Shown here piece by piece: positions 49,896 through 51,249 of a DNA stretch of 64,000 nucleotides; position 1 is the first letter of the stretch; each line of letters opens with the position of its first letter. The notes below the pieces were generated by a model that worked only from the letters and a program-made list of their open reading frames with translations, searched no databases and was not told the origin of the DNA. The position numbers and the translations under genes are program-made. Origin of the DNA: an uncultured Acidimicrobiia bacterium (lineage in GTDB: Bacteria > Actinomycetota > Acidimicrobiia > Spongiisociales > ZC4RG35); the NCBI GenBank assembly GCA_963790345.1, contig CAWBOD010000012.1:84188-148187 (forward strand), read 5' to 3'.

Positions 49896-50702
49896 TTGGA
49901 CAGGTACAGGGTCGAGGAAGGGTCCCGGGTCAACCTGAGCCGATTGGGATCCGGCCGATCGTTCCGAATTCGCCGGCAGCAAGCAAGACGCTGAGAGAAA
50001 GGCCACAACCAGCTCAACAGTCGGTTGGAAGGGCTTCAGGAGACGCTCTGGGCCGATCACCGTCACCGTCTGCTCGTGGTCTTGCAGGCCATGGACACCG
50101 GCGGCAAGGACGGCACGATCCGCAATGTCTTTGACGGAGTCAACCCTATGGGCGTGAAGGTGGCGTCCTTCAAGCGACCGACTGCCCCCGAACTTGCCCA
50201 CGACTACCTCTGGAGGGTCCACCCGTCACGTTCCGGGGGACGGTGAGATCATGATCTTCAACCGCAGCCACTACGAAGACGTACTGGTCGTTCGGGTCCA
50301 CGACCTGGTCCCGCAATCGCGGTGGGAGAAGCGCTATCGACACATCCTTGAGTTCGAGAGGCTCCTCTCGGACGAAGGCACGACGATCGTCAAGTTCTTC
50401 CTCCACATTTCCAAAGAGGAGCAGCGCGGTCGGCTCCAAGCTCGAATCGACGACCCCACCAAGCAGTGGAAGTTCGCGACGGGAGACTCGAGGAACGCAA
50501 GCTCTGGGACGATTACCAGCGCGCCTACGAGGACGCCATCTCCAACACCTCAACCTCCTTCGCTCCCTGGTACATCGTGCCGGCCGACCGCAAGTGGTAT
50601 CGCGATCTGGTCGTGGCCACCGTTCTGGTCGAGGTGCTGGAGCAAATGGATCTTCGCTATCCGGAGCCGGAACCGGGCGTGACCGGGGTGGTGATTGAAT
50701 AG
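49896..50702 (+). CDS. ppk2: polyphosphate kinase 2 family protein, at least 3 frame breaks
   Basis: SD aaggagg lies 7 nt before the TTG at 49896. Across three frames: [20 protein letters not shown] ... [38 protein letters not shown] ... [28 protein letters not shown] and [16 protein letters not shown]. Confidence 0.88.
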
Positions 50703-51249
50703 TCAGTAGGCAGTACGTGCAGTAGGCAGTAGGCAGTAGGCAGTAGGCAGTAGGCAGTAGGCAGTAGGCAGTGTCGACTGGCCGCGACCTCTCGGGCCTT
50801 CCGTCTCCAGTGACGATGGCCAGGTAGGCCCGATCCTGCCGACATGGCCTGTCCGCCTGGGACTCAGCTGACATCGACCGAGTTCCGATCCGCCTCGCGC
50901 CGAAGTGGATGGTCCGAGTTGGCTGCTGCGACGTTGCGCACATGAACAGTTCCGTGGGCGATCTACGTTCGCAAGCGAGTCCTGTGCGGAGATCTCCACC
51001 CGAGAACTCGCGCCGACTCGATGGCCCACGAACTGGTTCATGTGCGCCAATGTCCCGCGCCAGAACTGGGACCATCCGATTCCTAAGGCGATACCTGACC
51101 GAGTATCTGCGAGGTCGACGAGACAGGGCTGGCGATCACAATCGGGTCGTACCTCGGCCATCTCGCTCGGAGACGGAAGCCCGAGAAGTCAGCGGCTCAT
51201 CTGCACTCACCGCCGTACTGCCTACTGCCGACTGCCTACTGCCTACTGC
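50700..51249. repeat. 549-bp foldback (imperfect palindrome) element with (GCAGTAG)n terminal arrays
   Basis: The left array (50703-50773) has 7 perfect units at 50719-50767. The right array (51215-51249) has 5 CTACTGC-type units. Internal arms are about 65-70% complementary and meet at ggagatctcc (50988-50997). Confidence 0.85.

Follow-up and report, generated by a model that had tools for sequence, protein, structure and literature searches.

What kind of sequence fills the spacer between the convergent genes ppk2 (polyphosphate kinase 2) and leuS (leucyl-tRNA synthetase) in a 64,000-nucleotide stretch of contig CAWBOD010000012.1 (assembly GCA_963790345.1, positions 84,188 to 148,187) of an uncultured Acidimicrobiia bacterium, the whole of this stretch being referred to here as the window? 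A preliminary description had regarded the spacer as a non-coding foldback element bounded by (GCAGTAG)n repeats, possibly a new family resembling miniature inverted-repeat transposable elements (MITEs). As judged from alignment with relatives, the core between the two repeat arrays is a broken homologue, over its whole length, of a conserved single-copy gene encoding a 122-135-aa HExxH (zincin-like) protein. The palindromic look of the entire cassette is specific to this window and most likely an artefact; we consider it probable that the assembly presents a consensus of two orientations of the cassette, built on real arrays and a real inversion polymorphism.

The ppk2 gene (49851..50702, plus strand; Pfam PF03976 on two fragments of its open reading frame, ORF) terminates at a TAG codon (50700-50702) which is directly followed by the left heptamer array (50703..50772, plus strand). 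This array reads GCAGTAG in the ppk2 sense and consists of TCAGTAG (50703-09), GCAGTAC (50710-16), the dinucleotide GT, seven perfect GCAGTAG units (50719-50767) and a partial GCAGT extending to 50772. The right array (51215..51249, minus strand) is composed of five CTACTGC-type units which read GCAGTAG in the leuS sense, and contributes the stop codon of leuS (cta on the plus strand, 51243-45, within a unit) as well as its last Gln codon, the gene itself being located at 51243..53681 on the minus strand. Tandem Repeats Finder assigned copy numbers of 10.1 and 4.9 to the two arrays, a pattern search for the unit returned 10 matches where 0.01 were expected, and as terminal inverted repeats the arrays form 34-nt arms with 97% complementarity. 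No target-site duplication or duplicated flank was found at the array boundaries, the arrays directly abutting the stop codons. The previously reported coordinates of arrays, stops, arm pairs and palindrome centre all match the sequence, and the identities of PPK2 and LeuS were borne out by Pfam.

Both flanking genes are frameshifted in the window. The window ppk2 switches between frames +3/+1/+3 when searched by tblastn with PPK2 of relative L123, while leuS is broken into frames -3/-1/-2/-3, with at least three frameshifts relative to the 810-aa LeuS of L123. Such breaks in leuS, an essential gene, imply that the assembly is prone to indels. The 1-nt indels responsible, in ppk2 (relative to L122) as in leuS, fall outside homopolymer runs. 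ORFs look fragmented throughout the window, and calls of small ORFs cannot be relied on in any part of it.

The core (50774-51214; 441 bp) is an inverted duplication, as had been claimed, with a z of about 25: its local alignment with its own reverse complement scores 98, as compared to 15.3 +/- 2.8 for dinucleotide shuffles, and its left arm scores 49 against the reverse complement of its right arm (10.5 +/- 1.5 for the null). The arm pairs 50791-50808/51169-51185 and 50936-50959/51024-51047 are both present, all palindromic blocks share one axis at ~50988-50992.5 (the midpoint between the arrays being ~50994), and the palindrome centre GGAGATCTCC is located at 50988-50997. The intact homologues of two relatives were scored in the same manner: self-complementarity amounts to 14 for the L122 gene, versus 13 +/- 2.6 for shuffles, and to 12, i.e. 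shuffle level, for that of L126. An origin of the palindrome in the coding sequence of the gene was rejected on the basis of the intact L122 gene, which lacks self-complementarity. Palindromy as a property of the element, which the preliminary description had assumed, is absent from the intact gene of relatives and probably a consensus artefact. A further candidate, namely two convergent paralogous small ORFs within the core, was rejected as relatives contain one gene only.

The identity of the core is derived from relative L122, whose leuS 3' end is 86% identical to that of the window at the nucleotide level and whose ppk2/leuS spacer contains an intact 135-aa ORF on the ppk2 strand, specifying the motif HELVHVRQW. 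The corresponding ORFs of L001 and L122 share 74% nucleotide identity without any indel, and their mismatches (10/6/40 by codon position) are biased to third positions, which identifies the small ORF as a real gene. Its family comprises at least 146 homologues, in which HExxH..QW and AAMT.P are invariant. The dismissal of the ORFs inside the element as unconvincing is therefore correct for the window copy, which is frameshifted, but not for the intact gene of L122. Pfam returned no match for the window's own ORFs inside the core, and hand-spliced translations of the core produced as their sole Pfam match a weak one to the 12-residue HExxH segment (E 0.09-0.25).

The intact L122 protein aligns with Pfam eCIS_core/DUF4157 (PF13699) across profile positions 10-76 of 79, at 18.9 bits, below the gathering cut-off of 22 (E 1.7e-3), and a few of the database homologues do carry a precomputed PF13699 match. 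An AlphaFold model of the small protein has a pLDDT of 91.6, and the best fold matches retrieved from the PDB by Foldseek are the minigluzincins selecase, abylysin and jannalysin, together with HtpX (TM ~0.38-0.49; weak E of 0.07-0.3, and of 0.07-0.15 in the comparison with minigluzincins; probability 0.85-0.96); a PDB sequence search with the family profile returned noise only. Minigluzincins (selecase, projannalysin, proabylysin) and DUF4157/eCIS_core proteins resemble the small protein in their size of ~110-135 aa and, as predicted, in their HExxH helix, whereas a conserved context downstream of leuS is specific to the small-gene family. A previously uncharacterised small HExxH protein is a conserved partner encoded downstream of leuS.

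This homology bears directly on the possibility that a mobile element of the foldback or MITE-like kind, carrying (GCAGTAG)n as its terminal inverted repeats, was inserted between ppk2 and leuS. Such an element would account for the inverted arrays at both ends, and GCAGTAG...CTACTGC pairs do recur in many genomes and viral contigs. The core, however, has its homologue in a single-copy gene which keeps synteny with leuS in ~40 loci, its interior corresponding to a conserved 135-aa ORF rather than to non-coding sequence; no second copy of the core was found within the 64-kb window, and no target-site duplication is visible. Moreover, close relatives carry different heptamer units at the ppk2/leuS locus. 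Elsewhere, array pairs enclose 9 to 239 nt of sequence in which, compared by eye and unaligned, no shared core is evident, so that the pairs do not represent one mobile element. We therefore regard the mobile-element explanation, and with it the non-coding foldback family originally proposed, as very improbable.

LeuS assigns the window to Acidimicrobiia, and orthologous loci were obtained by exact-protein look-ups and one metagenome scan. In ~40 more distant Acidimicrobiia metagenome loci, leuS(+) is followed by the small gene(+), usually with the start of the latter within a few bases of the leuS stop, and ppk2 is convergent where the flank reaches that far; neither heptamer arrays nor, in the 20 loci scored for it, a flanking inverted repeat was detected. 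At L127-L160 the small gene is present on the same strand immediately 3' of leuS, even where LeuS is only ~40% identical, and the pair is unannotated. Judging from these arrangements, the ancestral state is a small gene directly downstream of leuS without arrays. In the close clade of the window, inverted heptamer arrays bracket the cassette and abut both stop codons, with flanking inverted-repeat scores of 27-35 in L123-L126 as opposed to a null of ~9 +/- 1. The arrays are no assembly artefact, a doubt raised by the preliminary description, seeing that (GCAGTAG)n occurs at the same two gene ends in independent short-read metagenome contigs (L126, L206-L212).

Within a lineage the array unit is the same on both sides of the cassette, while it differs between lineages, being GTGGTGC / GTTCTGC in L122-L124, GTGGTAC in L001 and L213-L221, GTACGTG with additional inner GAGTGGT units in L125, and GCAGTAG in L126, L206-L212 and the window. 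The ends of the adjoining proteins vary as well: LeuS terminates with VVVEQ in the window and with (D/N)Q in L126 and L206, as compared to VVVA in lineages with other arrays, and PPK2 ends with Q in L126 and L206, the last codons being supplied by the array in GCAGTAG lineages. Among contigs that specify an identical small protein, copy number differs (2-7 perfect GCAGTAG units, or 3 versus 5 GTGGTAC units), which marks the arrays as live microsatellites.

Both orientations of the cassette are represented. It is oriented in the ppk2 sense in L122-L126, in the seven contigs L206-L212 and in the contig of P0144, and in the leuS sense in L001, in the nine contigs L213-L221 and in the contig of P0124/P0210. 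Opposite orientations, seen between strains, are found in lineages whose leuS 3' ends are 93-95% identical; if relationships are roughly gauged by leuS similarity, no fewer than two inversions are required. A comparison of L215 with L122 places the inversion breakpoints inside the arrays. No recombinase or invertase domain was detected among the ORFs scanned or among the relatives' called genes within ~7 kb (in one scan, 2 of 10 ORFs had no Pfam match), the neighbouring genes being comEC, comEA, ppk2, leuS, trkA, opp-type ABC transporter genes and others. For want of such a domain, homologous recombination between the arrays is the mechanism we infer. Between L122, L126, L206, L215 and L125, lineages with leuS 3' ends of 93-95% identity, the small gene is 72-80% identical at the nucleotide level with frame and third-position bias kept, which would indicate fast evolution or allele exchange of the cassette.

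When the window core is compared with this gene (blastn and tblastn versus L122, L126, L206 and L215), it is dominated by the plus strand, i.e. the ppk2 sense, yet frameshifted and partly palindromised, with HELVHVRQ at ~51027-51050. In global alignment the core scores 147 with the gene in forward and 21 in reversed orientation, the null being -91 +/- 14. From left to right, six blocks of alternating orientation can be delineated. The first (R1, 50779..50830, minus strand) is the reverse complement of the 3' end of the gene, positioned where its 5' end and start codon should be; it matches the last ~50 nt of the L122 gene on the minus strand (79% over 53 nt, E 8e-6) and, together with the adjoining array (50727-50830), matches L126 on the minus strand at 82% over 105 nt (E 9e-23). 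The second (F1, 50831..50935, plus strand) corresponds to codons ~18-52 (DPAE...DIDRV...PKWM), is 71-78% identical to L001, L122 and L126, and differs from L206 by substitutions distributed 2/2/16 over the codon positions and by 6 indel events. It is followed by a short minus-strand block (R2, 50936..50959), delimited from the inverted repeat and by-eye comparison, which nearly equals the HELVHV codons in reverse complement and stands in place of the invariant AAMTLPW codons.

The fourth block (F2, 50960..50992, plus strand; WAIYVR...G) ends at the palindrome centre, beyond which a mirror copy of it (R3, 50993..51025, minus strand; boundaries approximate) is located where forward gene sequence is missing: the L122 gene produces no forward high-scoring segment pair between 50975 and 51026 of the window, and the best match of R3 is to codons of the N-terminal half in reverse orientation. 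The last block (F3, 51026..51205, plus strand) represents the C-terminal half (HELVHVRQ ... RFLRRYL..YLRGRR ... EAREVSG), matches L122 over 51026-51196 on the plus strand (71%, E 1e-16) and carries substitutions distributed 4/8/19 by codon position along with 8 indel events. At most one member of each mirror pair is in reverse orientation, and it is this which makes the blocks palindromic.

The forward blocks combine substitutions biased to third positions, as under coding selection, with a large number of indels. Control gene pairs have comparable substitution profiles by codon position, e.g. 18/12/61, while the forward blocks contain 6-9 indel events each (~1 per 18 nt), as compared to 0-9 per 300-400 nt in intact gene pairs and ~1 per 750 nt in the leuS flank; indel density in the forward blocks is thus ~10x that of the flanks. 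A natural old pseudogene is disfavoured by this combination: in the time needed to gather so many indels it should have lost the codon-position bias, which consensus errors would leave in place, and substitutions should be far more numerous at every codon position.

The same data permit an evaluation of the explanation in which the palindrome is real, originating from a 5'-truncated pseudogene that was palindromised by template switching within an array-anchored hairpin, or from illegitimate recombination between forward and reverse alleles. The 34-nt array stem, being 97% complementary, would keep the two halves in register, and the start of the gene with its first ~17 codons is indeed replaced by an inverted copy of the 3' end. 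Templated, or quasi-palindrome, mutagenesis as known from the work of Ripley and of Lovett would convert imperfect inverted repeats towards perfect ones, in register; the window differs from this in that several patches of 24-57 nt lie in a 440-nt loop. A real palindrome requires at least three separate in-register replacements of patches of that size, and its forward blocks are devoid of neutral decay, their third-position bias equalling that of intact gene pairs despite ~15 indels. In addition, no other relative examined has a palindrome, the two intact cores scored for self-complementarity, L122 (14) and L126 (12), being at shuffle level, and the assembly demonstrably mis-calls indels in the essential leuS. 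On balance, a real palindrome appears rather unlikely.

The preferred reading, a consensus of two orientations, can be formulated as follows. In the clade of the window the cassette is bracketed by two inverted 7-bp microsatellite arrays which reach the stop codons of the convergent genes and, in the GCAGTAG lineages, extend into those of ppk2 and leuS. As slippage-prone simple-sequence repeats, the arrays would change readily in copy number, and their arms are kept alike within a lineage, a concerted evolution that would come from intramolecular recombination or gene conversion. Recombination between the arms would flip the cassette, the small gene thereby leaving the transcription unit of leuS for that of ppk2. 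If reads or co-assembled strains in both orientations were then merged in an indel-prone, probably long-read assembly, their consensus would take the form of a palindrome in which forward and reverse sequence alternate, keeping register with the flanks. A pile-up or graph consensus anchored by common flanks is expected to switch several times, in register, from one orientation to the other. In a toy simulation, noisy L126 reads in both orientations were aligned by MAFFT and reduced to a column-majority consensus: a 15:15 mix of orientations produced self-complementarity scores of 101-123 (98 in the window), and mixes of 20:10 or more skewed produced a score of 13.

A number of observations weigh against this reading. 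The toy simulation requires a near-balanced mix and differs from a real assembler, and the contigs of opposite orientation, although from a single study, originate from different samples. Complementarity of the reverse blocks to their forward mirrors is only ~85%, short of near-identity; this divergence of ~15%, which includes indels, is as in an old duplication, and to our reading of the sequence a 7-nt insertion in the right copy is missing from the left copy, both of which are in keeping with a real palindrome. The reverse blocks match no leuS-sense allele preferentially, all alleles being at 79-81%. A register-shift test, in which window bases that differ from forward L126 were compared in register with reversed L126, produced no peak, the test being insensitive to indels. 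Finally, the rapid divergence of the small gene fits allele replacement as well as simple flipping. Should the consensus reading be correct, a "foldback element" in a metagenome-assembled genome can arise where an invertible segment is superposed on itself in its two orientations, and similar finds in error-prone assemblies are best compared with intact relatives and with the reads.

Beyond this locus, (GCAGTAG)3 was found at more than 120 loci of GTDB representative genomes among the matches listed (L002-L121), distributed over many phyla, with a chance expectation of ~0.3 by our own arithmetic. In IMG/VR it is present in 54 contigs (L222-L275), as opposed to two shuffled units of matched composition, present in 7 and 3, and to GTGGTAC, present in 3. 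By a crude ORF heuristic applied to upstream flanks, the start of (GCAGTAG)n usually lies 0-30 nt past the stop codon of an ORF on its own strand (54 same strand versus 29 opposite), in line with the abutment on stop codons noted earlier at the present locus. Where arrays are paired, they occur as GCAGTAG...CTACTGC in 35 instances and in the reverse arrangement in 3, which constitute one homologous element, so that the inverted pairing noted at the present locus is typical across phyla. GCAGTAG frequently has GGAATAG, GCAATAG or GGAGTAG as adjoining units, suggestive of a GNARTAG family. Among the fetched loci (0.9 Mb), period-7 arrays number 219, compared to 0-11 for periods 5, 6 and 8-11.

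The distribution of the arrays raises the question of whether they constitute a functional RNA or DNA module, forming a long-range stem in both convergent transcripts that would terminate transcription in both directions, act as an insulator or direct processing, while TAG in every frame would provide a backstop for translation. This proposal is compatible with the preferred explanation of the core. When the window and four relatives were folded, every minimum-free-energy structure contained a stem between the arrays (33-51 pairs), whereas the hairpin over the whole length occurs in the window only (z of -13.8 and -18.3 for the two strands, versus -2.3 to -7.7 for relatives). The position of arrays past same-strand stops in most classifiable loci, their 35:3 bias to convergent pairs, the 8-18-fold excess of (GCAGTAG)3 over composition-matched controls in IMG/VR, and the presence in the window of a second pair, (AGACGCC)3/(TGGCGTC)3, between rpsT and a convergent gene all speak in favour of a module.

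Against it, the arrays display no U-tract terminator signature: a terminator and promoter scan, limited to the canonical stem plus U-tract for terminators, returned none in the spacer and one terminator site inside leuS (0.7 expected), and a search of both strands of 50300-51700 against Rfam 15 remained empty up to E = 1. Copy numbers also drift freely and are often unequal between the two sides. The proposed stop in all three frames is arithmetically right for three or more GCAGTAG units, but is not conserved, the units GTGGTAC, GTGGTGC and GTACGTG of relatives at the same locus being free of stop codons. We consider a functional module unlikely, and for the predicted array stem, termination, insulation or RNA processing are conceivable but unsupported roles.

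Two wider propositions can be put forward jointly, as a pair that we hold to be doubtful: (i) that the locus is a recombinase-independent flip switch made of heptamer arrays, which moves a metalloprotease-like gene between the leuS and ppk2 operons, and (ii) that GNARTAG arrays form a cross-phylum module at gene ends. If the first were true, the mixed signal of the window would reflect live orientation heterogeneity in the population. If the second were true, GNARTAG arrays, of which GCAGTAG is the commonest, would sit sense-oriented at stops and pair into hairpins between convergent genes. Provided that the enrichment at stop codons and the orientation bias hold up, the old question of heptamer repeat function becomes directly testable.

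Several other features of the window deserve mention. The second inverted heptamer pair consists of (AGACGCC)3 at 43685-43706 and (TGGCGTC)3 at 43793-43814, which are separated by 86 nt and form a perfect 22-nt complement between rpsT (43388-43660, plus strand) and a convergent minus-strand ORF, the stop codon of which (43813-15) abuts the array. Further heptamer arrays are located at 29443-29468, 55959-55990 and 29079-29098, representing unpaired (TGGCGTC)n at two sites and (CGGAAGG)3 at 29079; one of the unpaired (TGGCGTC)n arrays is situated between two opp-type ABC ATPase genes, and the upstream ORF reads through it. A 49-nt perfect direct repeat (11943-11991 and 16150-16198, 4.2 kb apart), of which one copy overlaps a tRNA-Asn gene (16156-16229, minus strand), resembles attL/attR sites that would delimit a small integrated element. 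Strong intergenic hairpins were identified at 53698-53800 (between trkA and leuS), 25634-25691 and 60944-60996; two of these three share the motif CCCGTTTT(G/C)GCGC with arms of 22-29 nt, suggesting a REP-like palindromic family. Lastly, the regions 7058-7402, 13712-13942 and 14753-14966 contain a 69-bp tandem repeat in about 4-5 copies, a 21-24-bp coding repeat of the Pro/Thr type with a 69-bp super-period, and a 73-nt direct repeat with 93% identity between copies that are 141 nt apart.

With regard to known systems, the STRR heptamers of cyanobacteria are related heptamer repeats. Heptanucleotide units constitute the most abundant category of long simple sequence repeats (LSSRs) in many genomes, including those of actinobacteria, according to the summary of Mrazek et al. 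2007 given in PMC4679880; TAACTGA repeats are intergenic in Beggiatoaceae, where they are mostly positioned just upstream of start codons (PMC4679880), and heptamer elements have been described in Geobacter metallireducens (PMC2700814). Like LSSRs and STRRs, the arrays of the window are head-to-tail 7-bp intergenic units with a dominant period of 7 and hypervariable copy number, and (GCAGTAG)n shares with LSSRs a scattered phylogenetic distribution. In contrast to LSSRs, STRRs, TAACTGA repeats and the Geobacter elements, the arrays of the window clade are inverted pairs which enclose a complete gene and adjoin a stop codon on either side; GCAGTAG arrays follow stop codons whereas TAACTGA repeats precede start codons. 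Unlike in known heptamer repeats, the two sides of the cassette evolve in concert and the unit is replaced between close lineages.

A further comparison is offered by invertons, i.e. invertible DNA segments flanked by inverted repeats (PMC11892184, PMC11602134, bioRxiv 10.1101/2023.03.11.532203). The cassette resembles these in being bounded by inverted repeats, in its occurrence in both orientations among closely related genomes, and in a plausible consequence for expression, namely a switch of transcription unit. It differs from them in that its repeats are variable-length microsatellites as opposed to a fixed recombinase site, in that no invertase gene is found among the ORFs scanned within ~7 kb, in that the payload is a complete gene and not a promoter, and in that both orientations are known between strains only. 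The element is not a MITE, REP/BIME or CRISPR. Microsatellite arrays here take the part of inverted repeats flanking a whole gene whose inversion recurs among close relatives, and what is unusual is the combination of microsatellite inverted repeats, concerted arms, turnover of the repeat unit and a whole-gene payload between convergent genes.

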